Below, in pieces: positions 12,760 through 34,044 of a stretch of 64,000 bases of DNA (position 1 is its first letter; each line of letters begins with the position of its first letter). The stretch lies in NCBI GenBank assembly GCA_001662655.1, contig KV460210.1, one strand, 5' to 3'. The notes beneath the pieces are model-generated. The model ran no database searches. It was not told where the DNA came from and saw only the letters and a list, made by a program, of their open reading frames with translations. The position numbers were made by a program, and so were the translations under genes. The stretch is from Pseudogymnoascus verrucosus (taxonomy: Eukaryota).

Positions 12760-15700
12760 TCACCTTACCGACTCAACAGTTCCCTCTCTCGACCACACCA
12801 TGTCCTCTGCCTCACTACCACCACTAACAAGATCACCCCACCCCTCACCCCCCGTCCGTTCTACTTCCCCCACTCCAACCCCCTCAAACCACCACTCCCT
12901 CCTCACTCTCCTCTCTCCACCCCACAGCGCCGCCATAGCCGCCCTCGTTGTCCGTGGTCTCTTCCCTCTCCCCCCTTCACTCACCAGATTGCCCGCCTTA
13001 ACTCGTTCCCGCGCCGCCCTCGCATCGCACGCCACAATACCGCGCACATACGGCGCGATATCCGTAGCGAGTAGCGCCATGGGGCGGTCCACGCACGACG
13101 CTTCGAGGTGCGGCGGCGGGAAGAGCGGTTTCTCGGGGATTCCGAGGGGGTCAAACGCTAGGCTGTAGTGAGCGCGTGAGATGCCGCCTGGAGGGGAAGA
13201 GCGAGACTGGGTGATGTGGGTGAGAAGTTGGGGCTCGGTGACTGGGGACAAGCCAGTGCGAATAGGGCGGGGGAGGGAGTTGTTGGCGTAGGAGCGGGCA
13301 AGGGATTTGAGGGTGCCTGATAGGACGAGTGGAAGGGGAGGTGGGGAGAGAGGAGTGGCGGCAAGGAAGGTGGAGCCAATGGGGAGGTCGGCGAGGGTTT
13401 TGGCACTAATTGGAGGGTCGGTGGTGTCGAGGAGGATCTATCGGGCGTTAGTAATGGAATGTACAGGTGGGTAAAGGAGGATGGCTCACGTAGTTTGATG
13501 AGTCTAGTGTGCCAGTAGCACAGAGGTCGGCGGCGCTCATGGCGTCGGTGAAGATGTCATATGATTGAAGGGCCTTGAGACGTTTTTTCTTTGAGAGCTC
13601 GACGGGTTTGCTGGCGTAGGAGCTAAGGTCAAGCGTCGTATGCCAGTCTCCAGCGTCGAGTTCCCATCCATTCCACGTTTGCTTGATGATCTCCTCCTCG
13701 ATATCATTGATGCCGGACGGATCGCACAACGAATCTCGTCCTAACCAGCCCATACCATTCCTATAAGTGTCCTCGCTCACAACCCTGACAGTGTTGCCAT
13801 GAGAATCTTTATCTATGCCAGCCGGCAGACGGGGGTAAAACCAATCAAATCCACCCCTTTGGTCACCTACACCAATCTGGCACCAAAATTCGAGATCTGT
13901 CATTGTAGCTCGAAGATCGAACTTCTGCGCTTTATACAAGGCTGTGACTGCTGGCCGCTTCAGGGCATGGCCTTCGTTTGCAGCCACCAGTAGCATGTAA
14001 TCAACTGCAAGATCAACTGAGGGTGGTGCGAACCGAATTATGGCGTGCAATGGCAAAAGTTGGTTCAAAACAAGAGACTCGTCGTTGCAAGTCATGATAA
14101 TTGGTCGCTTGGACTGTGATATTAAGGTCAGGACTGTCGCCCAGAACTGCTTATCTTCCTCAAAAAGAATATCGACCTCTTCAAGGAGAATCAGCGACTG
14201 CTTCTGTTGCTTTGGCTTTTTTGCTGGAGTTGGATCTGTTGAATGCGAAGCAGTCTCTGAGTCTGGCTTTCCTTTTTTTGCTTTTGGCTCTTTTGCTTTT
14301 CTTGCAGTAGATTTGAAAAAGGTCTTCATTGTCACTTGCCGGCCGCTCTTCAGATCAGCATCAAGAGCATCCGAAGCGCGTTGGAGGTCTTCACAATCGT
14401 CCAATTTCTGCTCTTGCGTTTGCTGCACTAAGTGGTTCCTTGTCATATCTCCAACCTTCTCAAGGATATCTTTGCCGCTTCTTCGACTGCTAGAGTTGAT
14501 CTCAAATACTTCGAAACCAAGTTCCTTCGCCACAGCGTAAACAGCGGCAGTCTTGCCACACCCATTTGGTCCGCTTATCACAACTGCGTTTAAGAGCTTG
14601 TTGGGCTGCTTTGAGTTCATCGACTTCAGATCACCGTGCCGAATAACAGTTTTCTTCGGCCTACCAAGGCCACCTCGTGGAGATTCCTCGTCGGACTCGG
14701 ATACTTCATCCATATCGTTGGCTTCATCGTCGCTAGACACAATGAAATCTTCCAGCTTCTTTGACTTCCGCTTCTTCTTGCCTCCACCGTCTTTTTCCGC
14801 CTTTACAGGTCCAGGCGAGGCTCGAGTATTGCTAGAGTCAGCTACTTTCGTATCAACAGCAATAACAGTCAGAGATTGTAGCCATTCTTTCAGTATGAAA
14901 GCCTCTCTTCCATTTTGCAAAACCTCTGCTGCTGAATGTGGCGCATATTTGTGTATCCATGACTGAGTCTGATATTGTGATTTGTCAAAGGCGCTTAGAG
15001 TTGTGGGTATGCTGCCAAATAGCTTATTTATCACTGGGTGAGGAGAAGAGCCCAGGCTGTCCCTGCTAAGTTCATCCTCACTATAATCGTCTGTGAAGCG
15101 TCCTGATGTCACAGCAGATTTTAACTGCGGCCTGATACGTCGCTGAAGTTTGTACCCCGATTCGAAGTGGCGTTCCGGCACACGAAGGCATCTATCCGGT
15201 GCATTGAAGTGATTGGCGCTAAGGTCCTTCAGCTCTTTTCGCACAGCGTTTATTTCGAGCTTGGCGGCTATAACATTCAGAATATCTTCGTTGGCGGTGG
15301 CCTCACTAGCCGTATATTTAGATTTGTGGTTTTCGGATTTGAGCAACGTCGACGGTTCTCCCATTGGAGTCGGCGAAGGGTCATTCTCTAGACCTCTGAT
15401 ATGGGTCATCCCGCTAGGTGGCCATATCGGTTCGACTGCCCCTGGGAACTTCATGAGACTATTGGAGTTTCCGAACGCGGCGAAAGAACTGGAGTTGGGA
15501 GGTGGGCCGCTGGGAGTGGGAAGTAGTCGGCCTGTGGCTGGCGCTCGAAACAAGGCTGCTTGCTGGGGAGCAGATGCAGCAGGTTCGGCAGAAGTATTGT
15601 TGCTACCGCTCCTATTGGGCTTCATGGCGGTTTTGCCGAGGAAAAACGGGTGTGGGGATTTGGTTGTGTTGGCTTTCACAGGACGAGTTTCGACCTCAAG

Positions 15701-16647
15701 TTTCTGTTTCGGGGGTCCCTGTACTGGTTTGGTAGTGCTCAATATGTGGTCGATCTTGTTCCCTACGCTCAACCGGCTGCCTGTATCCGATCCGTATTTC
15801 AATGTAATAACTAGCGATTTGCGGTTTTTGCGGCCCTTTGAAGGGGCCTGGTCCTTGATGGATCGCTTGGGTGGAGAGCCAATTGTGCCTGTTTTTATGT
15901 TGAAATGAAGTATTTTCTTCGGCTTTTCGTTGCATAAAATAGGATCCATTGGCTTTCCGACCGGCTCCAAAGTGGCTTGCTCTCCTTTCGACATGGTGTT
16001 TATAGTATTGGGCCTAACAGCCTCCAATGTATTCAGGTTGTAATCCGCCCGGCCCTCAAAACCATGGGTCAGAAATGGTGCTCCATGAGCGTTTTCGAAG
16101 CCCAATCCCCTAGGAACGTTGCCATTATTCTCAACCGCCCCTCCCAGCACTCCATAATATGGTGGGAGGATGCCGCCGTTCAAATCTCTTGGGGTCGCTG
16201 AGTTTTCGAGCTTGGGATAATAATTCCGGTCACTATTGTCCTCTGGCGGTGTCGTCTTCCGTCTCTTCCGACGTGATTCGTTTAGATCTGTCTCCATACC
16301 TTCACTATTTTGATGTACGGTGGTTGGTAAAACAGCCCCTTCAGACTGCCTTGGGCGAGGTTCAAGGGGTGTAGGCCACACATTGTCGTGCACATGGTCT
16401 AATGATGCTGACGGTGGAGTATGTGTGCTTGGTTCGGCGGTGCCTGGTCGTGCAGTATGTGGCAGGTCGCTCGGCGGAGTTGAAGCTGGATTTGAAGCTG
16501 CGAACCCGAAACGTTAACACGCCAGTCGACCAAATGCATGGCTCGGAAGTCAGAAGTAAACATACAGTTCGATTTGCCAAAAAAGGGATGAATAGTTTTC
16601 TTCCTTTCATTAGTATCCACCATTGTTCTGGCAGTCACCGCTGCCAT
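12760..16647 (-). CDS. ELG1: ELG1/ATAD5 RFC-like AAA+ ATPase (PCNA unloader); start 16647 or 16623; introns near 16500-16565 and 13439-13490
   Basis: WIHKYAP, Walker A GPNGCGKT, GFEVFEIN..RRSGK, LILLEEVDILF and SKRPIIMTCN; the last exon continues in frame to DIAPYVRGIV...RTTRA. Confidence 0.85.
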
Positions 16648-17077
16648 TTCACGACCTGAGTCCGCCCATTCACTTCCCTCTATACGCGAACTTCGCGTCA
16701 CTCAAAATTAAGATATGGTGATGGATATGACGTAAATGGTGATTTTATGAATATAACGGCAATCAGAAATGACAGGCAATGGGCATGTCTCGGCTGACTT
16801 TGGCAAAGGTGTTTTTCTGAGAGTATTGTCCTTCTATGGCCGACAATGTTCGAAATTCAACCAAAGTGGTTCCTCTTGAAGACCGCGTCTTGTCGCGAGA
16901 TGTCCGAGCTTCACGATCAGCCCCACTAAAATTAAAGTTTGACCTGAAATATTAGGTGTCAATTATCTCGGGTCAAACTTTCTCCAAAAAGTTTTGGGAA
17001 GTTCGTGATAACGAAAGTCACCGCTCTGGAAGACTTCACCTGTATATATATTTGCGCACTTCAAGCGTAGCGCCAAT

Positions 17078-19951
17078 ATGTCGTCCACCTTTACGATTGA
17101 GAAGCCACTTGTAGTGGCCTCACTTCCCCGACCTGTCGACCATTCCACCGGTCGTTATTTTGTTTCTGATGTTCATGGTGGGACACCAGGCTCGAGAAAG
17201 CGTAAGAGAGCAGAGTTAGCTGTGGGAATTAGTGGTGAAGGTGTGAATTTGTACGATGTAAGTAACCTTCAAAGAACCACCGTTATTGACAATCTGCTAA
17301 CTTCAATCAAGATTCAATCGTCAAAACTCGTCACTTCATACGCTCTCCCTCCACAGGCTTTGATCACTTGCGCACCATACTCTCTAAGATTGAAGCAGGG
17401 CAAAGGGCTTGCTGAGAGAAGGACATACGCATCTACAACAGAAAATACTCCTCGAATCACAGTCTTCCGTGAGACGACAACAGCAGAAGGGCAAGCCGAT
17501 TCGTCAAGTGCGATCCACCTTGTCAAAGGTTCAACCAAACCAGTTGTTTTCCTCGGCGTTGCCCCAGAACAAATTGGTTCGTCCAGTGACAACCTACTTC
17601 TCGTAAAGTCCGATGGAGAGATACAATGCTTGGATGGGGATGATCTGAAGTTGAAATGGACATCTCCGTCTGCCGCCGTGAGTAAAAACTCTGCCATGCC
17701 CAACGTTGCGCACAAGATTGAGCTCGTCAACCTCACCGATGCGCATACCGCCAGCAAGGGGCTCCTCAAGGGACAGCCTGAGGCATTTTCAATCTTTTCA
17801 GAAGATGTGGATGCCAATGGGTTTAACCCAACCCTTCTTGTCCTCATTTCGAGCCCAGTCGATGCCACTGGGTCCGACAACCGCACGCTTCATGTTCTGG
17901 CTCTTCCTCGGGCTGGAGACAGTGCGTCTACCACCCAGGTACACTCGGTCCAGACCTTACTCTCTGTGCCAATTCCATGGCTTCACTCGCAGCCGCCGTC
18001 GAATTTCGGCAAATTACAATATGATATCCATGTTTCATCCGGATTTTTGTACGAGCTTGGTACCAGATCACTCACAATCTACGACTTGGTGGATGGTACG
18101 ATCAAGATCAAATCGCAACTTAATATCGACAATGTAGCATCATTCTTACGACTCAGCGGTACATCTGTAATGACAGCCACGAACGAGACCGTCGATATCT
18201 ACAACCCTACATACCATTCTATCCAAGCATCCACCAACCTAGACAGCATCCAGGGAGAGACTGCCTCGCGAAAGCGGAAGTTAGATGACGCCGAGGATTC
18301 AAGTTCGAAACAGTGCGAGCTGGTGGCATATTCCACAAAGCACAACCTTGTGCACGCGATCCTTGGTAGCCAACTGGTAGCATTTTCGATAGAGGCACGA
18401 AAGGATATTCCAAGCCGCCGTCGCGAACTTGGTTTGCTCATAGATTCGGTGGGTTGCGGCAGACGCCAAGCAACAGATGGGAGTTCCGGAAAGCTGCACC
18501 GGGTCCCACTGAGCTCACTTTCATCATATATCCCTGGGTCGAACCCGGCTGTCGACAGTACCATGCAGGAGCAATTCTCAAAGCTCGATCGATGTGTTGC
18601 CGAGCAAGACATTGACGGGTTCGAAGAAATAATGGCACCAGAGCTGAAGATGTACCGTCGGAAGATCGCGCCTTTTGTGAATGGACTAGCGGTCACTAAT
18701 GGCGTCAAGTCCAGTGATGGAACAGCTGTGCCTGAATGGATATGGCCATCCACACGAAGTGGGTATCTTGAGGTCGACCCACGTTGGGTGCAGTACGCAT
18801 TAAGCAGGGTTTTCAGTTGGTCCAGCCAGAACGGCGAGCAGAAGCTTCTTGTCGTATTTTATCCTCACAATGTTGTCAACTGGCTCCTGGAAACCGGCAA
18901 CCTCAACAAAGTCAATATCGAGACTGCGTTGAAGCATGAGGCTCGCAGTACTGAGTCCTATGTTGTCCCTGCAGGGCAACTAGTATCATCTCTCGTCGAT
19001 ATCGATCCTGAGATGAAAGTCCTCCTCTCTCTCATTTCAAACAACTACCTCGATGCGCCCGAGCTTGTGCACGCCATTCGCGTACTCATGCAGAGCCTCG
19101 AGATTCTTGACGATGGTACCAAGGCGGACAAGCCACTGCTTCTCACAGAAAACGAAACCCCTGCCAATAATGGCGATATGGAGACTGAAAACGAAATAGA
19201 AGAAGCAGATGCAGCCTTGCGCCTGGCGGAATATCAACTTGGAGACGGAGCCAGCATTCGGGGCCAAGCGTTGAGTTTGGCATTGGCTAAGTTACATTCT
19301 TGCCCCTCGGCAGCAGTCGTGCATGCTCTACAGTCAAACTTGACATCGAGCGAAATTGTGTCTCTCATCTACTTGCTGCGCTTTGAGCTTGCGCGCGGGG
19401 CGTGGACCTCGAAGTACCTGGACGTTGTGGATAGCATTGACGAGGACACCGGCTCACAAGACAGCACCATTGTCCTCATTTCCAGTCTAGTAAATAGCTG
19501 CATTGATGCCATCGGCTCGGGCGGTTGGCTTTCTGGGGACGCAATATTGGCCGGAGGGGATCGTTTCCAGTCAGAGGAATTAATCTCCAGCTTAAAGCTC
19601 GAGGTCAGTGCGGCGTTGGAAGGCATTGAGGAAGCGACCTACCTCAAGGGCCTCACCTCGGAAATGGTTCGCTACGGCGAAGCTGTGCAAAAAGCCCTAC
19701 CCGCAAGTGCAAAGAAGCAGAAGGTGGACAGTTCTCAGAAGGGGGGCAACGTGCGAAAGAACCAACCAATTACCGTTGCCCAGGTTGGGAAGGACGCGAC
19801 CATACTTCCCTTCGGATTGAAGGCGGACCAACTGATCTCGCTGATTAAGATTGGGGCAGGTGGGGAACTACAGCGCCGAACTGCGCGGGATATTGGAAGG
19901 CTGAAGAGCAAGAAGGTTGGAAAGTACTCGCAGGAGAGGATTGTGATCTAG
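17078..19951 (+). CDS. UTP8: Utp8-like nucleolar protein (t-UTP); likely in-frame intron at about 17258-17311
   Basis: N-terminal ELAVGISGEGVNLYD..LVTSYALPPQ and C-terminal KVGKYSQERIVI resemble fungal Utp8; GTAAGT...CTAAC...AG intron signals. Confidence 0.65.
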   Translation: MSSTFTIEKPLVVASLPRPVDHSTGRYFVSDVHGGTPGSRKRKRAELAVGISGEGVNLYDVSNLQRTTVIDNLLTSIKIQSSKLVTSYALPPQALITCAPYSLRLKQGKGLAERRTYASTTENTPRITVFRETTTAEGQADSSSAIHLVKGSTKPVVFLGVAPEQIGSSSDNLLLVKSDGEIQCLDGDDLKLKWTSPSAAVSKNSAMPNVAHKIELVNLTDAHTASKGLLKGQPEAFSIFSEDVDANGFNPTLLVLISSPVDATGSDNRTLHVLALPRAGDSASTTQVHSVQTLLSVPIPWLHSQPPSNFGKLQYDIHVSSGFLYELGTRSLTIYDLVDGTIKIKSQLNIDNVASFLRLSGTSVMTATNETVDIYNPTYHSIQASTNLDSIQGETASRKRKLDDAEDSSSKQCELVAYSTKHNLVHAILGSQLVAFSIEARKDIPSRRRELGLLIDSVGCGRRQATDGSSGKLHRVPLSSLSSYIPGSNPAVDSTMQEQFSKLDRCVAEQDIDGFEEIMAPELKMYRRKIAPFVNGLAVTNGVKSSDGTAVPEWIWPSTRSGYLEVDPRWVQYALSRVFSWSSQNGEQKLLVVFYPHNVVNWLLETGNLNKVNIETALKHEARSTESYVVPAGQLVSSLVDIDPEMKVLLSLISNNYLDAPELVHAIRVLMQSLEILDDGTKADKPLLLTENETPANNGDMETENEIEEADAALRLAEYQLGDGASIRGQALSLALAKLHSCPSAAVVHALQSNLTSSEIVSLIYLLRFELARGAWTSKYLDVVDSIDEDTGSQDSTIVLISSLVNSCIDAIGSGGWLSGDAILAGGDRFQSEELISSLKLEVSAALEGIEEATYLKGLTSEMVRYGEAVQKALPASAKKQKVDSSQKGGNVRKNQPITVAQVGKDATILPFGLKADQLISLIKIGAGGELQRRTARDIGRLKSKKVGKYSQERIVI

Positions 19952-20941
19952 AACCCCCGGTTCAGGTACTTTGTGCTCAGTGATGTCGGGCATTGTTGGT
20001 TTCAGGCTTACGGACGGGTGCAGCCGCCGTCGGTCCATGCACATGCATGTATATTGCGAAGAGGGGCGTATAGGCGCCAGCGATCCAGTAGTAAATGAGA
20101 AATTGTTGGTGATAATGCGATGAGGAAGGCTTGTTTCACGGGCGACGGGGGCGGAGCTGAGGCTGGCGCACATATTGGGGGGAGCTTGTTGGTTGTGTCC
20201 CGATTCAGTTCGATTCAAATGGTGGAAGTACTCAGCCACAGCCTGATCAGACGAACCAGGGAGGGTGTTTGTGCCACACGATACATACCAGTGCGGGCGA
20301 GGCAACAGCTTGGGCAACCGAGTATGAGCCATCATCTCTCTCATTCAATCATTCAATACATTATAAATTATTCCATGCACATTGTTGATGCACATTGTTG
20401 GGCATTAGAGAGACTATTTGTTATTTGTTGTGAATATGAAACCATGAGGTATGCATACCTTATCACCAACATCGAGTCAGTCAGTTAGTGTACATAATTA
20501 CAGTACAGGGCATTTTATACAGCCTTGTTTTTGAATCACCTTCTAGCTCGCCCGGCTTGGATCATCCGTAGCCCGTGGGGGGTTCCAACTGTCCAATCCT
20601 GTATCTCCGTGCTTTCCCAGTGTTCCCCACATCCCTTCCACAAAGAACCCAAAAGACAGGACCCCGCGGCTTCGACGTCACAATCCCGTCCAGCGCGCGT
20701 GCAAATGTCCCTTATCCCTCTGTAGCCGCTCAAACAACGTGGACTTTATATGGGAAGTGGATGCATCCTTTACTCAACTTGTGTACTTGTACTTCGCTTC
20801 TCCATATCACGAATACTACGAATACTACGAATCCTTCAATAATCTATTCATCTACATATCATCATTACTTTATTGCATTATAGCGACTCTCTTCACATGA
20901 ATACAACCACTTAATATCGGCTTCTGGAATCCTTTGATGTG

Positions 20942-23246
20942 ATGACTTTCGGTTCTAATCCGGCGGATATAATTATTGTACTGGAGTTCACCCGCCGGCT
21001 GTACCGACAGTGCAAGAACGCCGACGATGCCTACTTCGAGATCGGCCGCGAGATTCGCGCACTCCATACGGTGCTGCGACATCTCAAGTACGAAGTGCAG
21101 GCGCCGGAGTCGATACTCAACCGCGACCGGGCGCTTTATGCGCGAGACCTCGCGCCGCTGATCTCCGACTGTCGCTTTACGCTGGAGGACCTGGAGGAAC
21201 TTCTGCGGAAGTATGGCGACATTAAAAACAATGATAGGGGTGGGAGCACGACTGGACGGCTGTGGAATCAGTTCAAGTTTGGCAGTATAGAGATGGACCA
21301 GCTGGGCACTGTGAGGGTGAAGCTTATAAATCACAAAACGAATATCACGGCGCTGCTCGACACGATACAACTTCACGAATCGAGTAGGGTAGCGATGACA
21401 CTGGATAATCATGGGGGACAACTGGATATCATTTTGGATAAAGTGGACAATATTGCGTCGCGGATGGGTCAGCGGGCGGCCTCGTTAATGACTACATATG
21501 AGGATGACGATAAAGAAGTGTGGAAAAGCTTTCGGCGAGAACTGGTCGCGGAGGGGTTCTCTAGCGACGTTTTAACTCGACATAAAGTGAGTACAAATGT
21601 TCTCACTTTGATTTATGATTCGTGAGCTGACATTTATCTAGGATGTATTACGAGCCTATATTCGGCAAATCGATCAGAACGGACTGCTCGAAGATATCCC
21701 AGTCGCTGCGAAGGCGAGACAGCCAGTGCTATCAGTAAATACCCAGGAATGGCTCGAACAAGTTCAATCACCCGCATCTGCTTCCGGCCCACCTTCGTTC
21801 AACACTACCAGTTCTGATTCCTCGATAAAGGAGCTTAGAGTCGGGGAGGATAACAGCAAATTCCTACAGACAATGAAGAATGAGCGACCAAAGCCAGAAT
21901 CTATAACGACGGGTTGGAAGGAAGGTATAGGCGATACAAAGGCTCCACCAGTCCAACCTCTACCACCCCAGGTTCCAATACTTTATGCCCCGCCAGTCCA
22001 ACCTCCGCCAGTTCCAGCTCTTCAACGTTCAGGCTCTTCAAACAGTAGAAACGGTTACGGCTATGCCGTCGCCGCAAGTCCTCCAACATCCGTGCAGCTC
22101 AGGTCACCAATACCAGAACCAGAGATCTGCACCACAGAGTCCATCCTCGCCGACGACTCCGCGAACGAAAGCAGAATTCGAATGCTCGAAGCACCGCGAG
22201 CAGACGGGAGACCTCGACGACAATCAGACCAGAACGACAGAGACCAGGGCAACTCCCCACAAGGCTCCCCCGCCAGCTCCAAAAGCGCATCATCCTTCAC
22301 CGATGCAAACGCCATGGCTTACCGGCCTCGTCCCCAACAGCTACCTGTCCCAGTTCCAGAAGGGTCACTATATAGTGCCTCACCGCGTGGCTCGGGTGCC
22401 TTGCCCATACCGGTGAGAGCCGCATCCCACCATCCCACAGACCGGTACGGACACAGCCCGCGAAACATCACCACATCCGTACCCGCCGGCCTGGCACCAG
22501 ACTCGCAGGGCCGCGAGATCCCTCGGGACGCAAAGTGGACCAAGATTCGCCGCCGTCTAGTCAGCACTGAAATCCTCGAAGAGGACCGACTCAGATATGA
22601 AGCGTATGTACCCCATCTCGACCCCACCCACTCCTATATACAAGAACATAACTAACCCCACCTCAGTCGTCCCGAGTACGTCGCAATCCTCGGCGTCTTC
22701 TCCCGCTCCCAAATTCAAGACCTCGCCATCCGCACTGCCGCCCTCCGCGAATCCCGCCGTCTCCGCTCCCAAAGCACACGCGCTCCCCGCCCCGCCGACC
22801 CCATCCCCGCTCCCGCACCACCCAAGAAATCGGTCCACTTCCCCGATGAAGATACCAGGATCTCGGATACGAGCGATGAGTCGTCGTCGACTAGGAGCTC
22901 GGCTGATAGACGGTATAGTCGTGATCGGGCTAGAAGGAGGGAGGAGGATGGAGATAGGGATAGGGATAGGCCCCAGTTTGCGCCGAGGAAGCAGGGGCAG
23001 TATAGGATGCCGCAGTCGTGGATGGAGAGTTCGAGTGGAGCTGTGAGTTCGGAGGGGCGAGAGAGGAAGGGAAGGGAGAGGGAGGGGAGGGAGATTGGGG
23101 GCGCGGTGAAGGGGGGTGCGGCGAAGGGGAGTAGAGGGTCGCAGAATAAACGGTGGTCGGAACGGTTTACGGCTGCGAGTATTGGGGGTGCGGCGGGGAG
23201 TTTGCTGAGTGTGTTGAGTGAGGCAGCACAGGATATATCGCTGTGA
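20942..23246 (+). CDS. Uncharacterised protein with HeLo-like N-terminal domain, Pro-rich middle and a conserved 'AKWTKI.RRLV' fungal domain; introns about 21587-21641 and 22606-22666
   Basis: Spliced frame is continuous from MTFGSNPADII..LYRQCKNA through DDKEVWKSFRRELVAEGFSS and DAKWTKIRRRLVSTEIL..RPEYVAILG to the stop at 23246. Confidence 0.7.
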
Positions 23247-23548
23247 GGTGAGACTGATGGCGCATTTATGGGTTTGAGGGAAGGGGTTTGTATGTTTATT
23301 GGGATGTGTTATGATTATGGCAATGAGTATATGACTGGGATGACTTTATGGGATGATTGTTTAGGGTACGGGAGTTTTGGATTTTATGCGGGGATATTAT
23401 TATACCACCTGGGCAACAAATAGCAAATAGAAACTCATTTTGGGGTCGTTAAATGATTCATTCTCGAGAGCAGAAGCTATACGCCAGTGCCTCGTCCATT
23501 TCCTTGGTCGCATAATAATTTACAGTACAGTTCTTTCAACGCCCTTCA

Positions 23549-24035
23549 TCACACCTTAAACTCATCCCACCATCTCGCCTTATCCATCAACATCCCCTTC
23601 TCATCAAACTCCACCCCCTCCCCCTTCAACAACTCAATCTTCTTCTCCTGATTAATCCCACTGGGCGCTTTATTCCAATCCCCCATAAACCCGCCCACAA
23701 ACCCCGTTGAAGCAATACACCTATGGCACGGCTACAGATACTATCAGCTCTCATCCTCTGACTTGGGCAGAAACTTGGAGCATAGGCATAGTCGGTTGAC
23801 AAATGGATGGGAAAGGAGAGACTTACGACTTCGGGCGCAAAGGGGTTATTCCTCAATGCTCCCCCGATGGCGCGTGGACTCGAGTTCAGGGCGTCGGAGA
23901 GGGATTTGTAGGATGTGATGCGGCCGGAGGGGATTTGGACGAGGAGGGCGTAGACGCGCTGTGATGTTAGCTCCCCGTCTTCTCAAAATTAGAGGTGATA
24001 GATACCTCTTGATACGGCGTAACTTTCGCTGCCAT
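23549..24035 (-). CDS. O6-methylguanine-DNA methyltransferase (AGT/MGMT), short form with only the DNA-binding/catalytic subdomain; 3 exons, largely missed by the ORF track
   Basis: Splices to MAAKVTPYQE|RVYALLVQIPSGRITSYKSLSDALNSSPRAIGGALRNNPFAPEV|PCHRCIASTGFVGGFMGDW...KIELLKGEGVEFD...FKV*; intact PCHR active site. Confidence 0.88.
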
Positions 24036-24782
24036 CTTGCCTGTGGTTGCCTGGAGGCGCGGTATGGAACTGAGATAGTCTTTTGGTGGTGATCAAAGTG
24101 AGAATATTGTCAGTTCTCTGATGTCGATAACGCGTTCGGTTACGAACAGTAGTAGTGGACGACCTTTATTACCACCTTAGAGCAGGTAAAAGCAGATTCT
24201 CTTATGTCCACTTCTGTGGACGCGATAAGTTTATTTATATGAGCAACGTCCACAGTTGAGGCTCATGGGAACTTGGTTGCCCCACCACGCTAGAGTCCGG
24301 TTGCTCCCAATGTAACCAATCAGCGCGCCAGGCGGCACGGGAACGCTAGAGGTCTCTTTAAACACCTTGAGAGTCTGGAGCCGCTGCTTGACTCTTATTT
24401 CTGGCGGGGGTGGGGGGTATATGATATCATACTATTGAAGCTTTATAGGTAATCTTACAAATCTTATGTTGTTGGGGGGGGGATTAGACAGGATCAGATA
24501 TTCGCCACTTTCAACACTGCTTGACTCATACGGGGGATCGTTCTCGACTCCAACATCAAGGGGTCTCGCGTTTGGTTTGCTATAGAGCTCAGCTCTACTA
24601 CTCTAGGAATAAACTGCTGTTGCACCACCGACATTTGCCATGCCCATATCACATCTTGAGCCACCAGTGGCAGTTTCTAACTGAAACTGCTCAACTGCCA
24701 AAATAACCGTGCCCATATTAGACCTCCCTTATAAGAGCCTTCCCCTTTTGCGTCCGACATTCCAGATGCCGTGAAAAAAAAA

Positions 24783-25775
24783 TCAATGCAAATCAAAAGG
24801 AATGTCTAAAATTTTCCCCGTAGGATTAACCAGAGCGTTCATAATATTCTCGAAGATGGCCTCCTGGGAGTTCTGATGGCCCTTGGGGCCCACAGATGAC
24901 CTTGAGGGAGACCATGACGATAGTGCCAAGTGGGCGTCCGGAAACCGCGTAGATAAAATGTTCAAAAGAGCGTCGCTCGAATCCTCAATATCCATTAAAC
25001 ACATCCCATTAGGGCTCGTGGCTATCAGGACGAAGCTCGATTTCCAGGGCTGGATGGTGTAGAAGATCTCCTTTGGCCTTGGCTTTGGCACTGCCACTCG
25101 GCTGGGCAATCCCGAGGCCACGGAGTAGAGGTCATCGATCAGATCGGTTTCATTCATACCCACAGCTCTGGATTGAGGCCTAATAGGCGACATGTGGCTG
25201 GATACCGAGCCCTTGGCAGCTGGGCCTTCTGGGACTGATGGGAGCTGATGTAGCACGGGCGTCGCAGGGCCTTCACTGGCGGTTTTACTCGCCAGATACC
25301 CAAGGGATGGTGTTTCTGAAGCAATCGACCGTGGCGACTTCAATTCAGCGTTTCCATCCTTCGCCAAGCCCTCGGCGTAAACCCGTGGTGTGACACCTGT
25401 AATCTTCTTGAAGACCCGATGGAAGTGGCTCTTCGTCAACCCGGCTTCTTCAGCCAGGTTTGCAAGCGACGGGATGGAGCCCTTCTCAGCCTGGATCTTC
25501 TCGATTGTGTGCCGCGCTCTGGCCACGAGGGTAGCTTGTGGGTCGTGCTTGTCAAGATCCGGTTTGCACCGCTTGCAGGCCCGAAACCCGGCCTCTTGTG
25601 CAGCAGAGGCGTCGTCTTGGAAGACCACGTTTGCTCGGCGCGCGAGTCGAGCACCACATGTCGGGCGACAATATATTCCCGTCGTCCTAACGCAATACAC
25701 GAAGCTGCCGTCGGCCAGGGGATCATGTGCTTCCAGAGCAGCCCAACGAGAGGACTCGGTCAGATAAGAGGCCAT
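24783..25775 (-). CDS. ada: Ada-like methylphosphotriester alkyltransferase/regulator (Ada Zn domain, AraC HTH, residual N-subdomain of the AGT fold); intronless
   Basis: RW.....DP.ADG.FVYCVRTTGIYCRPTC...NV.F.....A..AGFRACKRC (four Zn cysteines); HTH LANLAEEAGLTKSHFHRVFKKITGVTP. Confidence 0.9.
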   Translation of the reverse strand: MASYLTESSRWAALEAHDPLADGSFVYCVRTTGIYCRPTCGARLARRANVVFQDDASAAQEAGFRACKRCKPDLDKHDPQATLVARARHTIEKIQAEKGSIPSLANLAEEAGLTKSHFHRVFKKITGVTPRVYAEGLAKDGNAELKSPRSIASETPSLGYLASKTASEGPATPVLHQLPSVPEGPAAKGSVSSHMSPIRPQSRAVGMNETDLIDDLYSVASGLPSRVAVPKPRPKEIFYTIQPWKSSFVLIATSPNGMCLMDIEDSSDALLNILSTRFPDAHLALSSWSPSRSSVGPKGHQNSQEAIFENIMNALVNPTGKILDIPFDLH

Positions 25776-26297
25776 CGCAACGATTGAAGTCCAATCAGTC
25801 TTTTTCCTGCGCGTCTAGGGCGGTAATACAAGAAAATATAATTAATGTTCAGCTCATGGCCTGCGGGGTAAGCAGTGGACGGACGCTGCAAGATGACACT
25901 TTTTGCGCAGGATCCGTGACAGGTCAAATGTCACTGGGATAGCTCAACAGGTGTCCTCAGTTCGCAGAGTTTATGCAGGTTCCTTCAAACAGTTCATACA
26001 CCGAATATCAGGGCCCACATGCGATGAACAGTCAGAGAAACAGATCGAATGTTTCATCCCGACTTCGCTGTGGAAGAGCGAAAGAAGAAATATGTATGAG
26101 TGATGAAGAGTTTGATTGTGCTTGAGCATATGCAGCATGAAGCAGCATGGAACCAGAGAGATTATGTTGAACCAAGATGAACCAACAGTAGTAGTGCGTA
26201 TGGTGTGGTATATTAGAGATGAGTCACGTGCTACAGGGGCCAATGATACTCGGGATCCTACCGTGGTACTAGAGGTAGTATAGCGTAGTATACGCGT

Positions 26298-26448
26298 ATT
26301 ATAGCGAATTATAGCAAATTATAGCAAATTATAGCGAATTATACCGTACTATAAGATACCAATCGCGTGGCTGTATTGTGGCATTTCTGTCATTTCTGGT
26401 ATTTCTGGTATTTCTGGTATTCCTGGTATTCCTGGTATTCCTGGTATT
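26298..26448. repeat. Adjacent tandem arrays: 10-bp ATTATAGCRA x4 (26298-26343) and 9-bp ATTYCTGGT x about 7 (26383-26448)
   Basis: Read directly from the sequence. Confidence 0.9.
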
Positions 26449-27335
26449 ATTGCGGCGCCACTTGGTGTAATTAACTCGTGCACCTCGTGTAACTGGATAG
26501 CTCCGATCCATGTGCGCCCCTCTAATCTACTATAATCCTTACTTACTCGACTAATTCCGATACTACAATACTACAATAGAACTACTAATAGTTATCGCTC
26601 ACCGCTAACAGTACCGGAGCTAGACCGACCGGCAGAATATCCACCACCTTGGGGAACCTCTAGTCATAGATTGTCCAATCGATGGCCCATTCTCCCATTC
26701 AATTGCATATAGAACAGAGATAAATAATTCATACTGTAACCTTTATTACTAAATAAGGGAATTCACCTTCACATATAGAGCACCTGTATCATTTCTGCCC
26801 ATCCACTTTGCCCCACAAGTATTGGGCTGGGAATGTCCACTGAGGCGCAAAGCTGGTCAAACTCAAAAAGATTTCAATCTGAGCCGTCCAAGCAGAAATC
26901 CGCTAGCGAACAACCACTCGTCCCTCAAATACCAGAGGTATTCCTCACGCATTCTCTCTTTATTCCTACAACTCTCCAGCAAACAATAGATCTCGAGATA
27001 TTGGCGACCCTCTCGACTCGTAAGCCCTTATCTGGGGAGTCCACTCTTTGCCAAGTTCATAGCGGTCCCGCTAAGAGCCAAGATCCTCGGTTTTCTGCGC
27101 TCAACATTGGCGCCACTGGACCTGAATGCACCCTTTACAAATACGACGCTCGCTGAGGAGGAATCTGTAGCTTAGGTCTATACAAGCATACCTAAGCTTC
27201 AGGATACTGTTCGAAACGCGCGCGACAAGAAGTTCTCCAAAGGACTTGGCGAGCCCATAAGCAAGGTGCCACTCCGCGGCACAAGCCGACAAATTCGAGA
27301 CATCGAAGCTTTCGGAGCCGCGACCTTGACTCAGT

Positions 27336-30300
27336 ATGGCGTGGGAGCATCTGTCGATCAACAAGCCTCATTTGGTGTATCTCATCTTAGGCGGCTTCAC
27401 CTCTCTGTTTATGTTATGTTCGTCCTTTATCAAGGAAAGACTATACATCGGCGAGGCGACTGTCGCCACCATCTGCGGCATCATCTTTGGCCCGCATGCC
27501 GCCAACCTCATTGACCCCAGCACATGGGGAAATGTCGATCAAATAACCCTCGAATTCTCACGAATCGTCCTCGTGGTCCAATGTTTCGCCGTCGGCGTCG
27601 AATTGCCGAAATATTACATGGAGAAGCATTGGAGGTCCGTCACCTTCCTCCTCATACCTGTTATGACCTTTGGATGGCTCGTTACGAGTCTGTTCATTTG
27701 GTGGATGGTTCCTACGCTGAACTGGCTCGAGAGTTTGGTTGTGGCCTCCTGTGTCACTGCCACGGATCCCGTCCTGGCCTCTTCGGTCGTTGGTAAGGGA
27801 AAGTTTGCCAAGCGCGTACCTAAGCATTTGCGTGATCTTCTGTCCGCTGAATCGGGATGTAACGATGGCATGGCCTTCCCTTTCGTCTACCTGGGTCTTT
27901 ATATCATCCATTACAAGTCCCAGCCCTCACAAGTGGCGTTCCATTGGATTGTCGTCTCAATCCTGTACGAATGTGTGTTCGGTGCCATATATGGCTTTGT
28001 CATCGGATACATTGGCAGACGAGGCATCCGATGGGCCGAGAAGAACGATTTGGTTGATAGAGAGTCATTCCTTGTGTTTTATTTTGTCCTGGCACTCTTC
28101 TGTGCTGGATCGGGTAGTCTGTTAGGTGTGGACGACTTGCTTGTTGGCTTCGCCGCTGGTGTAGGCTTCTCCAACGATGGATGGTTTACACAGAAGACAG
28201 AAGAGTCCCATGTTTCCAACGTCATTGATTTGCTTATCAATTTGGCGTATTTTGTCTATTTCGGCACCATCATCCCTTGGGATCAGTTCAACTCACCTGA
28301 GCTGGGAACTTCCGCGTGGAAGCTGGTTATTATTGCGTTATTTGTCGTTTTCTTCCGGCGCATACCGATCATGTTAGCTCTCAAACCATTTATACCCGAC
28401 ATAAAAAGTTGGCGAGAAGCACTGTTTGCGGGTCACTTTGGCCCTATTGGAGTTGGAGCTATTTTCATTGCCATCCTCGCGCGAGCAGATTTGGAGACGG
28501 GTTCCACGACGCCTTTAGCAGTGCTCCCAGCAGAGGGCACGCCGCATTATCATCTCATCGCGTTGATATGGCCGATTGTAACGTTTCTCGTTATCACCTC
28601 TATTATCATCCACGGATCCTCGATTGCTGTTTTCACGCTCGGAAAACACATCAATACGTTAACACTGACGATGTCATACACGACTGCCAATGAAGAAGGA
28701 CCCTCTTGGATGAACAGACTGCCCCGAATTTCATCACAGTCCAAGTCAATGTCCAAAATGTCGGATACTGACGCCGACGACATCAAGATGGAGGATCTCC
28801 CACCAGGAGCGCTTCCACCTGTTGGCGTTCCAGGAGCTTTCCTTAGAAGGCAAAAGGAAGAAGATACGGGCAAACCAAATGCTCGCAGTTCATCTATCAT
28901 ACCTAGGCGAAGGAAGAAGTCCAAATGGGACGGATATGGACCAGGAGGACCTGTCAGCCAGTCGGCTATCGCGCCGCAGCCTCGCAACCAAAGCCAAAAC
29001 ACATCTGCAACCTTGACGCCAGAGTCTACAAGCCATGAAGGCGAAGGAGAGGGCGAGGAGGAGAGGGGCGAAAGAGTAATTGGAAAGGTTCAGCACGATG
29101 AGGAAATGGAAGAGATTATGCACCATGGCGAGGAAGAAGAACGCCCAGAACACCACAAGTCCAACGCCGAACGTCATCCCCACACATATGAAGCTTATCA
29201 AGAGGGCGATCACGTTATCATCGAAAATGAAGATGGCGATGTCCTCTCGGTCGAACAATCTCCTCCCGAGGAGGGTAAGGAAGAGAAGCTTGGCGAAGTC
29301 GGGGCGAAAGCAAAGGAAGCTATGGAGCACCCCGAGACTGGCTACAAGCAGTTCAGGAAGAAAATCGGCGAGTGGAGGCACCGTGATGAGGGCGAGGAGC
29401 AGAAGCCCAAGCAGAAATCCAAACGTGGCCCAGCACTGGCTTACCAGTTCGGTAACACTGTAAGTTTATGACGCATATTCGATATAAATATTGTCACTAA
29501 CTCTCGCAGATTATTGTCGAAGATGAAGACGGCGAAGTCGTTAAGAAGTATGATCTTCCATCTCACAGGGACACTAAGAAGGCCGAAGCAGGCGCCGCCA
29601 AACCAAAAACCCCACGTAAGGACAAGGCAGGAGAAGAGGCAGGCGCACAAGAGGGCGAGAGCTCCGAGGCCCAACAGACTGGTCAAAGCAAGCTGATCCA
29701 AGGTCTCAACAAGTGGAGTGGCTTCAACGCAATCAAGGAAACCCAAATCTTCGACTCCTTCAAGGAGAACAAGGATGACTACAAGGACGACGAACACATC
29801 CGCTTCACCATCGGCAGCGCCGGCCGCCGCCTCACCAAGGAAGACTTCCTCAACGAGATCCGCTCCCTAGACCCTAAGGGCCGCGCAGCCGTACTCGAGA
29901 GGTCCGACGCACCCCCCGCCATGAAAGATCTCGCGCGCAGAGACGCAGACGCCAGCATCCCCGGCTCAAACCGCCTCTTCAGCGCAAAGAACGTGCAATC
30001 CGGCGCCTCCGCAGCCGCTGCAAAGGTCGTCGGTGCCGCGATGGCAGGTGCCCACGCGCCGAAACCCGAAGAGCTGGACGGAGCAGCCAGTAGCAGCAGC
30101 AGCCGTAGCAGCGAGGACGCCGAGGAGCACCGCGCGGTGGCTAGGAAGCACAGAGCGCTGTTCGCGCACGCGCAGGACTCGGAGGACCGCGGGGCTGGCT
30201 CGCCGGGTCGCACTGGTGTCATCGCGTCGACTGGGTCGCCTTCGGGTGAAGTCCCCGAGTCGGCTGCGGAGCGAAGGCGCCGCGAGCAAGCACTCAAGGG

Positions 30301-30595
30301 GGTCGATGATGATGATGTTCCCGCCACGAAGCGCGTAGCTACCCCTGCTGATAGGCGCAGAGAGTCTGCTACTACGGCGAGGAGAAACTTGGTCTCTGGA
30401 GCGACGAGAGATGATTCCGAGACGCCTGCTGAGTGGAGACGTCGTATCGCAGCGCTAGGACACAGCGAGGAGCAAGAAGGCGATGAGGATGAGGCGTCCC
30501 CGACTGTGCCGACGCTACAGAGCCAGTCGTCGACTGTGAGCGGGAAGAGTCGCGGGATCCGGTTTGCAGAGGACCCGGTGCGAGGACGCAAGTGA
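27336..30595 (+). CDS. NHA1: Plasma-membrane Na+(K+)/H+ antiporter Nha1/Sod2; intron 29460-29509
   Basis: FIKERLYIGEA, TATDPVLASSVVGKG, LSAESGCNDG, GVDDLL and EALFAGHFGPIGVGA; exon 2 (IIVEDEDGEVVKKY...) is in frame to 30595. Confidence 0.95.
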
Positions 30596-31477
30596 GTGAG
30601 TGGGTGGAGACGACGTACACAATACCAACAATAGATTTGAAATTTTCGCGGAAGCGTCGTTTTCTAATTACGATTTTCTTGGGGATCTAAGGAATTCGAG
30701 CGGTTTGCTTTGTTTTTTGGGGCTGGGGAGGCTTTTGTTTTTGGGAAATTTTGGGAGAGCCCCAGAATGGATGCTGGTTTGTTAATAGACTTGTGGTTTT
30801 TCAAACGGATTCTCATGGTTCTTATGGGATGGTACTGCGGATGCAGAGGTAATGGTTGTATGGGAACGTGCGGGTTATGACTATATGGGAGCGGCTCTTT
30901 GGTCGGGGGGGTTTTCGGGATTCTTGGGACTGGTTTGGGGGGAACTACCTCTGACAGTTTTGGCAAGATGGGCGAGAAAGGATCTCGATGGGCTGAGAGA
31001 GGGCCTAATAGTTAATGTCTTTCTACTGAATCATAAGGAAACAGATACCAATTTCAAAGGATTACCTCGAATCTTCAATGCCCCCTAGCTTGTTCGTGAC
31101 CGCGCACATCTCACAATCACAATATAGTAGTAGATACCCATCAGTCGTTGTAAAGAGATCTATTAATGGTATCATGAGTCCTTAGTCGAAAAAGCTATGC
31201 CAAAGGCACTACAAATACATTGTCCCTCCCCCCCCCCTCAAGTTCTACAGCCGCAAACGCCGAGTCTCGGATGCTTGTATCAGCACCCTCGTTTCCCTCC
31301 CGCAGCCTGCTTGTTCCGACACCTGCGCCATGCTAATGAGCCTGTTTCCTTCTCTCGCAACACACAATCATCAGCATCATGAAATCTGCCGCCCCACTAC
31401 ATCCTCCTTCTCGGGTTTTTCCCCATGGGTTCATTCATACATGAGCATCAACCCCTTGCATCATACTCCAAGGCGAA

Positions 31478-33190
31478 TCAAGGACTCGCCCACCCTCCTG
31501 CAACATCGACCCACTCAGCCATGCAACTTCCCTCCTTCCCTTCCACATCAACAATATCCGTATCGCAGCGGCATCGGCACCCGACGCCATTCTCCTTCGG
31601 GTCATCCCAGCTGTCCCAGTACTCGTCTTCCTCGCGCCTCTTGCGCGGGTTGGTAGTCGTCATCTCGGGCCACGGGTCGCGCTTCAGCTGTCGCGCTGGC
31701 GCATTGGCAGGGCAATGCTGGATGGTTGTGTGGCGGTATCCGAAGTCGCGGAAATAGTGGACTTGGCTCGGGGAAAGGAGGGCGCCAGCGGCCAGGGAGT
31801 GGATAGGTGCGTCACCCCACTGTATCTTGTTAGCAAATACTCTGTTACAAAATCAGGGAAAGGGGAAACGTACCCTCTCCATCCAGAAACCGCCACTGCG
31901 GTCCATCATCTGAAAGAAGTCCTCGTACTCCTTGCTCCTGAACCAGCTGAGGCTTGCAATCTCGAAATTCGACCAGAAATGGCACATGTTGTATTTCTCG
32001 CCTTCCATGGCTTCTGGGTCGACATCAGGTAGTGATGAGCCCTTGCGGAGAATCGGCTCTGGGATAGGAGGCTTGTAGCCTGGCGTGTCTTCTGGGCGTT
32101 TCTTCTTCGGTCCCTCTGGGTCAGGCTCGACGAACATCTCCCAGAGCCCCTTGGACTTGATGTTGTTGGTTCTCATATACGCAGATGCATATCGGAAGAT
32201 ATTGGGGACTGTCTCCTTCAATTCCTTCACGGCGATGGTAAACCCGTATGTCTTGTTATTTTCGATCATCTTTTGGAACGGATCACTGCAGTCGTTAGTT
32301 TGGCCCAGCAACTATGGTATAGAACGCTTACTAAGTGATATCACAGAAGTACTTGATCTCTGGCTCGAGGCGCCAGTACCACTCGTACTTTTGCAACAAT
32401 TCATGCTTGTAGAAGAATCTATTTTCATTAGCGACGTTCCATTTCAAAGGGTCCTGTTGTCCGGACATACCCAGAGTAGAATCTGCACATGGAATGGTAG
32501 CTCTCCATGCCACCATACATAATTGCGGCGTCGCCTTGCTTTGCAATTCCCTCCTTCGCAACCCGTGGATCGATCCAATCTGGAAAGCCCCACATGCTCG
32601 GGTCGATTTTCCCAAACTCCACCGACGAACTGGTATAGTTTTGGACCGTCTCCTTGAAAGTCGAGTTGAAGTCGCCGTCATTGAGAAAGACGTATGGGTA
32701 ATGATACCATCTGTTGAAATGGCGCTCAATAGACTTGATCGATTGGATAACCCCCTCCAACTCCTTATTTCTTGCCAAAACAACAAACGCGGCATTAGCC
32801 CTTGGCTTCGTGGTATCCGGAACGTCGCATCCTGTCACAAACACCTTGTCGTACTTCTCGCTAATTTTCCTGTAAATCCATTAGTTACGATCCTGAGCCA
32901 TCCGTTCACGAGCCATACCTTATAGCTGGAGGACTCCCCCCCGGCGTTAATAACCCCCTTCCCGGTGACGACGGGTGCCGCACAAACAAAACCAAGATGC
33001 AAACAACGACCATAAAGGGAAACAAAAGCACGACGCCGAGAGGTACGGAAACGGCCGAATTGCCTTTTAACCGCAGGGGGCGTCTGAAAAATGCCCATCT
33101 AGAGGTCTTGTTTTTGCTCCCTGCCTCCTTCATCGTGGGCAAATCTGTCACCGTTGGCAACCGCTTCATAGCGCGCCGCACAACCTCCAT
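31478..33190 (-). CDS. GT15 alpha-1,2-mannosyltransferase (KRE2/KTR family, KTR5/7-like); multi-exon
   Basis: Type II TM anchor; NAAFVVLARN, YPYVFLND, ESYHSMCRFYSG, YEWYWRLEP, CHFWSNFEIA and ER|WGDAPIHS. Confidence 0.92.
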
Positions 33191-33567
33191 AGCTGCGAAG
33201 GTATTTCGATATCGTGGTTACTGTATTATTCGCATGTGGACTTCCGCACCAGCTGTATTATAATCGTCGCAATCATGAATAAAATCGCACGCGCAATTGA
33301 GGGTAACTGTAGAGTAGCAAGATCCAACTTGGGCCCTGTAGAGTTAACAAGGTCCAAATTGGGCCAAGGACCCAGAGACGGGAAGGAGACACCACAATTA
33401 GTTGCACACCGCCCTGTACATCAACAATTCTGCCGTAATTTAGCCCCTCGAAACACCAAATAAATGTAATCACGTGCACTACTTTTTACCAACAGCACGG
33501 TTTCTATATTCAGCCTCGACGACCCCGCCTTGGCACTATCACAGCCAATTAACAATCCTCTGTCGAC

Positions 33568-34044
33568 ATGTCCCCCAAAATCACCTCCAAAAGTCTCTCA
33601 TACGATTCGGCTCTCCCCCCCTTCCTCCAACGCCTCCGTGCCGAGAACACTGGAGGCTCCACAGCCGCGCCACGCGCCAGACGCGCCCCGAATCCTGACG
33701 CCGACGAGGAGGATGAGCCGGTCTATGTGGATGAAGAGGGGGCAGCTCTCGACGATGATGAGCTACACAGTTTAGGTGTGACGAAGAAGGGCGGAAAGAA
33801 AGGCGAGCAAGCTGCAGAGGAGGCCAAGCCAGAGGCAGTGGAGCCAGAAAGGAAAGAGGAGAAGATTGCGGCAATTGGGGCAGCGAGGAAACGAAAGGTT
33901 GGGAAAGTTGTGGGAGCCTCGGAGGAGGAAGAAGGGAAGGGCAGTGATAAAGCGGCAGTCACCCCCGGGAAAGATAAACAGGCGCCGCCACAGAAGAAAA
34001 AGAAGGTCAAGAAGGTGAAGCTGAGCTTTGGGGATGATGAGTGA
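33568..34044 (+). CDS. Small Lys/Glu-rich conserved protein (DUF4604-like)
   Basis: LSYD..LPPFLQRLR at the N-terminus, DEEDEPVYVD, and a KVKLSFGDDE end. Confidence 0.7.
   Translation: MSPKITSKSLSYDSALPPFLQRLRAENTGGSTAAPRARRAPNPDADEEDEPVYVDEEGAALDDDELHSLGVTKKGGKKGEQAAEEAKPEAVEPERKEEKIAAIGAARKRKVGKVVGASEEEEGKGSDKAAVTPGKDKQAPPQKKKKVKKVKLSFGDDE

Follow-up and report, generated by a model that had tools for sequence, protein, structure and literature searches.

Escherichia coli Ada (NF011964; structures 1adn, 1u8b, 1zgw, 1wpk, and 1sfe) combines a methylphosphotriester-accepting zinc domain, AraC-type helix-turn-helix (HTH) motifs, and a two-domain O6-alkylguanine-DNA alkyltransferase (AGT) in a single polypeptide. 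In Bacillus subtilis, the methylphosphotriester-type (MPT) regulator AdaA and the alkyltransferase AdaB are encoded by adjacent genes, a division that separates the regulator from an AGT still complete with both of its domains. A fungal Ada-type adaptive response has been known since 2012 from Aspergillus fumigatus, where an Ada-like MPT protein and a separate AGT are both needed for adaptation (O'Hanlon et al. 2012; PMC3439912). Here, we examine a 64,000-nt stretch of DNA from the cold-loving fungus Pseudogymnoascus verrucosus (contig KV460210.1; hereafter the window) in which an Ada-like MPT gene (gene 1) stands in tandem with a gene for a single-domain AGT, or mini-AGT (gene 2). We favor, at a probability of roughly 0.75, the reading that gene 1 is a truncated, horizontally acquired Ada lying beside a resident fungal mini-AGT, so that the two genes differ in ancestry.

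The published systems differ from this locus in several respects. Relative to E. coli Ada, gene 1 has the same zinc domain, first HTH, and AGT N-terminal subdomain in the same order, but it lacks the second AraC HTH and the catalytic C-terminal domain, and the catalytic domain encoded next door is apparently not of Ada descent. As in B. subtilis, the MPT regulator and the AGT are two polypeptides from adjacent genes; the boundary here, however, lies inside the AGT fold, which leaves the N-terminal subdomain on the regulator and an AGT gene that lacks it. In A. fumigatus, Afmpt is essential for Afagt induction and the MPT protein was assigned a bacterial origin with an inferred Firmicutes donor; the comparison with AdaA/AdaB is drawn in the discussion of that work, the available text of which describes partial alignments only and mentions no AGT N-terminal subdomain in the MPT protein (PMC3439912). 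The A. fumigatus AGT is also reported to complement yeast mgt1; if this AGT is a single-domain enzyme, the complementation already shows that a mini-AGT is able to work by itself. SaraC of the basidiomycete Stereum hirsutum, a 54.9-kDa global regulator of secondary metabolism, is likewise a fungal Ada_Zn_binding, AdaA, and HTH_AraC protein whose relatives fall into basidiomycete, ascomycete, and bacterial clades, and its description, in the portion available, names neither an AGT N-terminal subdomain nor a linked AGT (PMC9769804). Finally, alkyltransferase-like (ATL) proteins such as E. coli ATL and Schizosaccharomyces pombe Atl1, as well as C-domain-only AGT fusions, also contain the AGT C-terminal fold alone, although ATLs lack the acceptor cysteine (PMC10779285), whereas the gene 2 product retains it. 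The features of the pair are as follows.

24783..25775, minus strand: gene 1, putative Ada-like MPT sensor/regulator, 330 aa plus stop, intronless (open reading frame and Pfam)
25557..25751, minus strand: zinc (Cys4) methylphosphotriester-repair domain, residues 9-73, with Cys36, Cys40, Cys67, and Cys70 (PF02805)
25353..25541, minus strand: helical DNA-binding domain with the first AraC HTH, residues 79-141 (PF00165 and predicted helices)
25089..25355, minus strand: disordered low-complexity linker, residues 141-229 (AlphaFold confidence, pLDDT)
24786..25085, minus strand: orphan AGT N-terminal (ribonuclease-like) subdomain, termed the tail, residues 231-330, ending in LDIPFDLH
24036..24782: spacer of 747 bp between the genes, holding the 3' untranslated stretch of gene 1 and the 5' stretch of gene 2
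23549..24035, minus strand: gene 2, single-domain AGT, 114 aa, three exons (sequence, RNA contigs, and PF01035)
24035-24006, 23958-23827, and 23731-23549, minus strand: gene 2 exons, the last including the stop codon
24005-23959 (47 nt) and 23826-23732 (95 nt), minus strand: gene 2 introns, both GT..AG
23720..23731, minus strand: gene 2 active-site PCHR, at the start of exon 3, with the codon of the acceptor Cys56 at 23728-23726

The original prediction, drawn from the DNA letters, had described two same-strand genes about 750 bp apart, the upstream one with an Ada zinc domain and AraC HTH and ending at the equivalent of PLDIR, the downstream one starting just after that point and carrying PCHR. 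It had also placed the break within the transferase domain rather than at the Bacillus AdaA/AdaB boundary and taken the C-terminus of gene 1 for the ribonuclease-like AGT subdomain. This description holds in each part. Gene 1 encodes the exact sequence of database protein P0242, and the gene 2 product equals database protein P0121 letter for letter. Using database protein P0042 as the reference bacterial Ada (360 aa; PF02870 at 203-275 and PF01035 at 279-358), residues 2-330 of gene 1 align to P0042 12-276 (BLASTP, E 2e-55), with LDIPFDLH facing LDLPLDIR, and residue 6 of P0121 aligns to P0042 residue 278 (E 1e-11). A single Ada residue, P0042 277, separates the two alignments. Aligned with six bacterial proteins, 15 of 15 fungal-type proteins end at or shortly past the same domain boundary. 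The two genes jointly cover the Ada domain series except for the second AraC HTH. The pair mimics a split Ada, since the domain boundary at which the first protein stops is also where the second starts. As judged from these alignments, the break is the PF02870/PF01035 boundary, inside the AGT fold, and not the AdaA/AdaB boundary.

The N-terminal part of gene 1 is that of Ada. Pfam assigns residues 9-73 to Ada_Zn_binding (PF02805, E 4.8e-31) and residues 103-131 to HTH_AraC (PF00165, E 7.7e-07); a profile of gene 1-type proteins reaches the N-Ada structures 1wpk, 1zgw, and 1u8b at E 2e-48 to 2e-47, and the N-terminal part of the AlphaFold model retrieves N-Ada/DNA structures at E 2.5e-12 (Foldseek). 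The four cysteines C36, C40, C67, and C70 are invariant in 21/21 aligned sequences (15 fungal-type and six bacterial) and correspond to E. coli Ada Cys38, 42, 69, and 72, which are named in the legend to supplementary figure S1 of PMC3439912. In the AlphaFold model, helices span residues 79-98, 104-111, 115-126, and 130-141, and pLDDT then falls below 50 over 141-218 and 220-229, marking a disordered linker. The second AraC HTH of bacterial Ada was not found in gene 1 (HTH_18, 20.7 bits; cut-off 33.6), and the low-complexity linker occupies its position in every fungal protein of the 21-sequence alignment. Scored as a whole protein against the bifunctional Ada model (NF011964 / PRK15435), gene 1 stays below the cut-off (144.2 versus 345 bits; NCBIfam). 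Some Pseudogymnoascus strains carry two gene 1-type copies (V501_00988 and V501_05947; O988_07465 and O988_04191; proteins P0004, P0007, P0250, and P0254), and the O988_07465 copy has an altered, extended end past ...PTGKIV.

The last 100 residues of gene 1 have no Pfam match, and the PF02870 model does not match the tail even at E 10. Searched alone (96 aa), the tail matches P0042 210-275, the PF02870 region, at E 1e-10 (BLASTP), and a profile built from the 15 fungal sequences only reaches positions 12-73 of E. coli Ada-C (1sfe) at E 9.3e-4. Its AlphaFold model, ordered strand-strand-strand-helix-strand-helix, is confident (pLDDT 82-96) except for a loop at about 294-300 (<50), and it matches 1sfe over 97 columns with a root-mean-square deviation of 3.8 Å (Foldseek, E 3.1e-3). 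The tail is also better conserved than the linker, the least conserved part of gene 1: identity is 0.90 versus 0.86 within the genus and 0.56-0.63 versus 0.34-0.47 when relatives farther away are compared. Conservation of the tail peaks in the last 30 residues (0.93 within the genus), which come close to the HTH in this respect. Over wider distances the tail evolves faster in fungi, with identity of 0.32 among fungi versus 0.57 among bacteria, and some lineages have lost it, as seen in the tail-less MPT forms of two metagenome contigs, L015 and L009.

The gene 2 product scores 74.7 bits against PF01035 (cut-off 27) and 62.9 bits against TIGR00589 (cut-off 46.4), with no other domain detected. 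Its stretch SPRA.GGA..NP...PCHR lines up with solved AGTs, and P55, C56, H57, and R58 are invariant in 30/30 mini-AGTs. Also invariant in these 30 are Y27, R39, and E92, with N48 nearly so; by analogy with human AGT, these four would fill the Tyr, Arg-finger, Glu, and Asn-hinge roles, respectively. The protein begins five residues ahead of the PF01035 domain, and the N-terminal ribonuclease-like subdomain is not in the same polypeptide. An N-terminal extension is ruled out because an in-frame stop lies 20 codons 5' of the ATG, within the leader covered by RNA contigs.

RNA contigs from four runs were compared over 23400-26000. Three of the four, from three studies, hold spliced contigs, which derive from relatives about 90% identical and show no transcript starts, ends, or levels. 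The gene 2 introns are skipped exactly, GT..AG on the coding strand, in runs X3, X7, and X9 (the 47-nt intron only in X9), and the gene 2 contigs span 23452/23498 to 24117-24271. Those of gene 1, found in three runs, span 24525/24594 to 25994 and beyond, contain no joint, and retain the stop codon. Within the compared region, no contig bridging 24272-24524 and no joint linking the genes was seen. Gene 1 and gene 2 are two separate transcripts. Two deposited Pseudogymnoascus gene models, P0249 (450 aa) and P0248 (485 aa), nevertheless fuse both frames, as expected if splicing or read-through produced a full-length fungal Ada from one gene. We consider this barely credible: besides the separate contigs, the retained stop codon, and the in-frame stop ahead of the gene 2 ATG, the fused models omit the conserved gene 1 end VNPTGKILDIPFDLH (the last 15 codons) and add 21 residues from the gene 2 5' leader. 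Fused P0249 also folds poorly, with a mean pLDDT of 57.8 and 35-49 over the tail, versus 82-96 in the gene 1 protein (unpaired alignment). The two deposited fused models look wrong. Most orthologues in the databases are still labeled hypothetical.

The tail is an Ada-type N-terminal subdomain in Ada order, which implies that the acquired gene was a full-length ada rather than an adaA-type gene. A 120-row tree of the zinc-HTH region divides 79 fungal-type from 41 bacterial rows (Shimodaira–Hasegawa-like approximate likelihood-ratio test, SH-aLRT, 87 by a quick method; branch about 0.25), a topology compatible with one acquisition by fungi. No donor stands out among the best bacterial loci (at least 80), which are mostly from Pseudomonadota, with Acidobacteriota, Gemmatimonadota, Cyanobacteriota, and others; these mainly Gram-negative matches differ from the donor proposed for A. 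fumigatus.

Across 160 loci, PCHR lies in the zinc-domain open reading frame (ORF) in 129; 23 are cut by a contig end, two are frameshifted, and six have no AGT C-terminal domain in the ORF. None shows a bacterial split like that of gene 1 and gene 2. The six are a fungal-type long form with the tail (L010) and five short, tail-less forms (L004, L009, L015, L029, and L056); metagenome contigs L009, L010, and L015 hold the only fungal-like loci among the matches listed. Of the two frameshifted bacterial Ada genes (L149:2866-4197 and L040:3-1257), the first is shifted precisely where the N and C domains meet; we regard both as probable assembly errors or pseudogenes and not as split genes.

Gene 2 has different relatives. 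Of 301 matches to P0121, the best 120 are without exception fungal proteins whose only domain is PF01035; most measure 110-125 aa, and some gene models are longer. These matches share 54-96% identity and represent Pezizomycetes, Dothideomycetes, Leotiomycetes, Lecanoromycetes, Eurotiomycetes, and other groups. An exhaustive HMMER search again yields this family as its best 150 cluster representatives. Every one of the 69 representatives of at least 190 aa has PF01035 and none has PF02805, an AraC HTH, or PF02870, and the N-terminal extensions of the long models are unconserved low-complexity sequence. Members include Orbilia, Knufia, Phlyctema, Cryomyces, Trichoderma, and Fusarium, the basidiomycetes Sporobolomyces and Phenoliferia, and the chytrid Batrachochytrium, and every ascomycete class sampled is represented. 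Fungal AGTs (proteins P0272-P0420) share the C-terminal stretch GGF.G.W...K..LL..EGV.F, which is absent from bacterial Ada-C.

The PF01035 trees comprised fungal AGTs and Ada-type C-terminal domains only, to the exclusion of Ogt, AdaB, archaeal, and animal AGTs. In a tree of 106 rows, 54 fungal sequences split from 50 of the 52 bacterial ones, all Ada-type, along a branch of 1.55 changes per site (SH-aLRT 100); the remaining two are chance PCHR rows with branches of about 10 that fall outside. A careful tree of 52 rows recovers the fungal versus Ada-C split at 100/100. Domain identities point in the same direction. For the zinc domain, fungal versus bacterial identity (0.58) is close to that within bacteria (0.59) and within fungi (0.62). 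For PF01035, it is 0.34 between the groups but 0.72 within bacteria and 0.75 within fungi. A domain that changes slowly yet stands so far from Ada cannot have parted from Ada when the zinc domain did, unless it went through a large burst of change. Among solved structures, P0121 matches archaeal 1mgt (6e-14), the Sulfolobus solfataricus protein (3e-13), Mycobacterium tuberculosis OGT (3e-10), and human MGMT (8e-9) ahead of E. coli Ada-C, which ranks 22nd of 29 (5e-7), and the Ada model is the weakest of five NCBIfam matches to the gene 2 product. The two halves of the pair differ in ancestry, and gene 2 is apparently a resident, vertically inherited AGT of a pan-fungal PF01035-only family.

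These results bear on a true fission, in which a single bacterial ada, once transferred, would have broken at the PF02870/PF01035 boundary and left gene 1 and gene 2 as its surviving halves. The exactly collinear junction, with one Ada residue between the halves, is what fission would leave, as are the shared strand and order at 747 bp and the persistence of this arrangement within the genus. We nonetheless regard fission as very improbable. The gene 2 family occurs in a chytrid, in basidiomycetes, and in ascomycete classes in which no Ada-like partner was seen. It is separated from Ada-C by a long 100/100 branch, retains only 0.34 identity to Ada in what is the slowest-evolving domain of both groups, and stands closer to archaeal, mycobacterial, and human AGTs. 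No split form occurs among the 160 bacterial loci, only the two frameshifts, and at L015 a tail-less MPT gene is also linked to an AGT, in divergent orientation. The original prediction had offered either a precise fission of an acquired ada or a truncated Ada clustered with a minimal AGT. The second option is borne out; the first fails on the membership of the AGT in a pan-fungal family, its 100/100 split from Ada-C, and an adjacency that is absent or different outside the genus.

Linkage of the two genes extends through the genus. Locus tags or accessions are adjacent in nine Pseudogymnoascus strains (e.g., VC83_05674/05675, V495_01824/01823, and O988_04191/04192); two further strains have fused models, and another two have both genes on one contig under accessions that are not consecutive. 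Outside the genus, a 1.15-Mb metagenome contig (L015:9226-10762) encodes a tail-less 254-aa MPT protein and a mini-AGT head to head, 336 bp apart, with no tail anywhere within 20 kb. This mini-AGT is 73% identical to gene 2 and resembles Helotiales AGTs; its first intron is placed as in gene 2 and its second elsewhere. A long-type protein (P0056) and a mini-AGT (P0192) are each recorded on a contig of 104,965 bp, possibly one and the same, and this case was not counted as linkage. Linkage in two arrangements, one of them tail-less, is more readily explained by selection for co-regulation than as the scar of a fission.

The genes are not linked everywhere. In A. fumigatus, the locus names AFUA_5G06350 (MPT) and AFUA_2G02090 (AGT) place the genes on different chromosomes (PMC3439912). 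The listed MPT and AGT copies of Zasmidium cellare lie on different scaffolds (478 kb and 1.32 Mb), and no AGT was found within 1.8 kb downstream in the Friedmanniomyces-like contig L010. Such cases would be expected if the two genes were neighbors with no functional coupling, the tail being a decaying vestige and the adjacency a chance product of rearrangement in the genus. The tail-less forms at L015 and L009, the low tail identity among fungi relative to bacteria, and the evident ability of the mini-AGT to work partnerless in fungi where no partner is known would also be consistent with this. We judge it unlikely overall, since linkage is seen twice in different orientations, the tail exceeds the linker in conservation, approaches the HTH in its last 30 residues, and has a confident fold, the A. 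fumigatus MPT controls AGT induction (PMC3439912), and the two upstream regions share an exact 13-mer that occurs nowhere else in the 64 kb.

24145..24157, plus strand: 13-mer AACAGTAGTAGTG, candidate shared cis-element, 110-122 nt upstream of the gene 2 ATG
26184..26196, plus strand: second exact copy of AACAGTAGTAGTG, 409-421 nt upstream of the gene 1 ATG

Both copies have the same orientation relative to their gene, and they are the only two matches in the window with up to two mismatches allowed. The motif was found post hoc, and two stretches of 600 and 747 nt are estimated to have some exact 13-mer in common with a chance of about 0.01; we therefore treat it as a candidate shared regulatory site and as a lead only. 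Shared 8-mers of both upstream regions and the L015 spacer (e.g., TGACTCAT) were set aside as too short to mean anything. Tandem repeats lie 500-670 nt upstream of gene 1, at 26279-26343 (period 10, 6.4 copies) and 26379-26448 (period 9/18/27, up to 7.8 copies).

Under the favored reading of an acquired Ada beside a resident mini-AGT, a full-length bacterial ada would have entered fungi by horizontal transfer and given rise to gene 1. There, it would have lost the second AraC HTH and the whole catalytic PF01035 domain while keeping the zinc (Cys4) methylphosphotriester-accepting domain, the first HTH, and the orphan AGT N-terminal subdomain. By homology with E. coli N-Ada and the A. fumigatus MPT/AGT system, Cys36 of gene 1 is predicted to take a methyl group from a DNA methylphosphotriester, and the methylated protein would become a transcriptional activator of the neighboring AGT gene and possibly of its own. 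Cys56 of gene 2 would then strip guanine of O6-alkyl groups in a suicide reaction. The clustered arrangement, in tandem here and head to head in the other, Leotiomycete-like contig, may serve co-regulation. The domain content and boundaries, the separate spliced transcripts, and the differing ancestry of the halves are observed, and we infer the methyl transfer, the activation, the co-regulation, and whatever the tail may do.

One possible reason for the retention of the tail is docking in trans on the resident mini-AGT. This would rebuild a two-domain alkyltransferase tethered to the methylphosphotriester sensor, in effect a chimeric two-gene Ada made from a bacterial remnant and a fungal enzyme. 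By analogy, docking is plausible because the AGT N-terminal domain is not strictly required for transfer (review, PMC10779285) and the two domains of human MGMT, N-terminal and C-terminal, expressed separately, form a complex (review, PMC10814553). The conserved and confidently folded tail, its best conserved last 30 residues, and the repeated linkage of the genes are in line with docking. As an account of why the tail was retained, we put it forward tentatively and consider it more doubtful than probable.

Several points weigh against the favored reading. Independent origin of the two genes requires a coincidence, namely exactly complementary truncations that occur in one lineage, adjacent, and in Ada order and strand. 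Since the PF01035 trees leave the origin of the fungal family unplaced, an ancient fission with a subsequent burst of change is formally conceivable. Conservation is higher in the tail than in the linker, and the favored explanation assigns the tail no role. The fungal/bacterial split on the zinc-HTH tree has moderate support (the quick-method SH-aLRT of 87), and linkage outside the genus comes from very few loci. Regulation of gene 2 by gene 1 is argued by analogy with homologues. The E. coli Ada-box pattern AAT-N6-GCAA has 11 matches in the window versus 9.2 expected and none in 18447-27602, and another Ada-box pattern, AAAGCGCA, at up to one mismatch, has none in either upstream region or the L015 spacer.

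The pair is flanked by long ORFs, at 13448-22655 and 27330-35649 of the window, for an AAA/Rad17-like ATPase, Utp8, a PigL_N-like protein, an Nha1-type Na+/H+ antiporter (as two ORF pieces), and a YEATS-domain protein. No AlkA, AlkB, or other alkylation-repair gene was found among them. The compact adaptive-response locus once proposed is thus confined to the MPT and AGT pair.

Together, these findings add to the known fungal adaptive response in three respects that appear to be undescribed so far. The N-terminal half of an alkyltransferase persists in many fungal Ada-like proteins; fungal AGTs, from chytrid to ascomycetes, are without exactly that half; and both genes became neighbors at least twice, in different orientations. 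Published accounts, in their available text (PMC3439912, the 2023 review, and PMC9769804), make no mention of an AGT N-terminal subdomain in fungal Ada-like proteins, of single-domain fungal AGTs, or of MPT–AGT linkage. The genus includes the bat white-nose pathogen, in which the pair is present (VC83_05674 and VC83_05675). The three findings together offer a natural test of what the AGT N-terminal domain, so far poorly understood, does, and of whether a resident enzyme can be served in trans by a remnant of bacterial origin.

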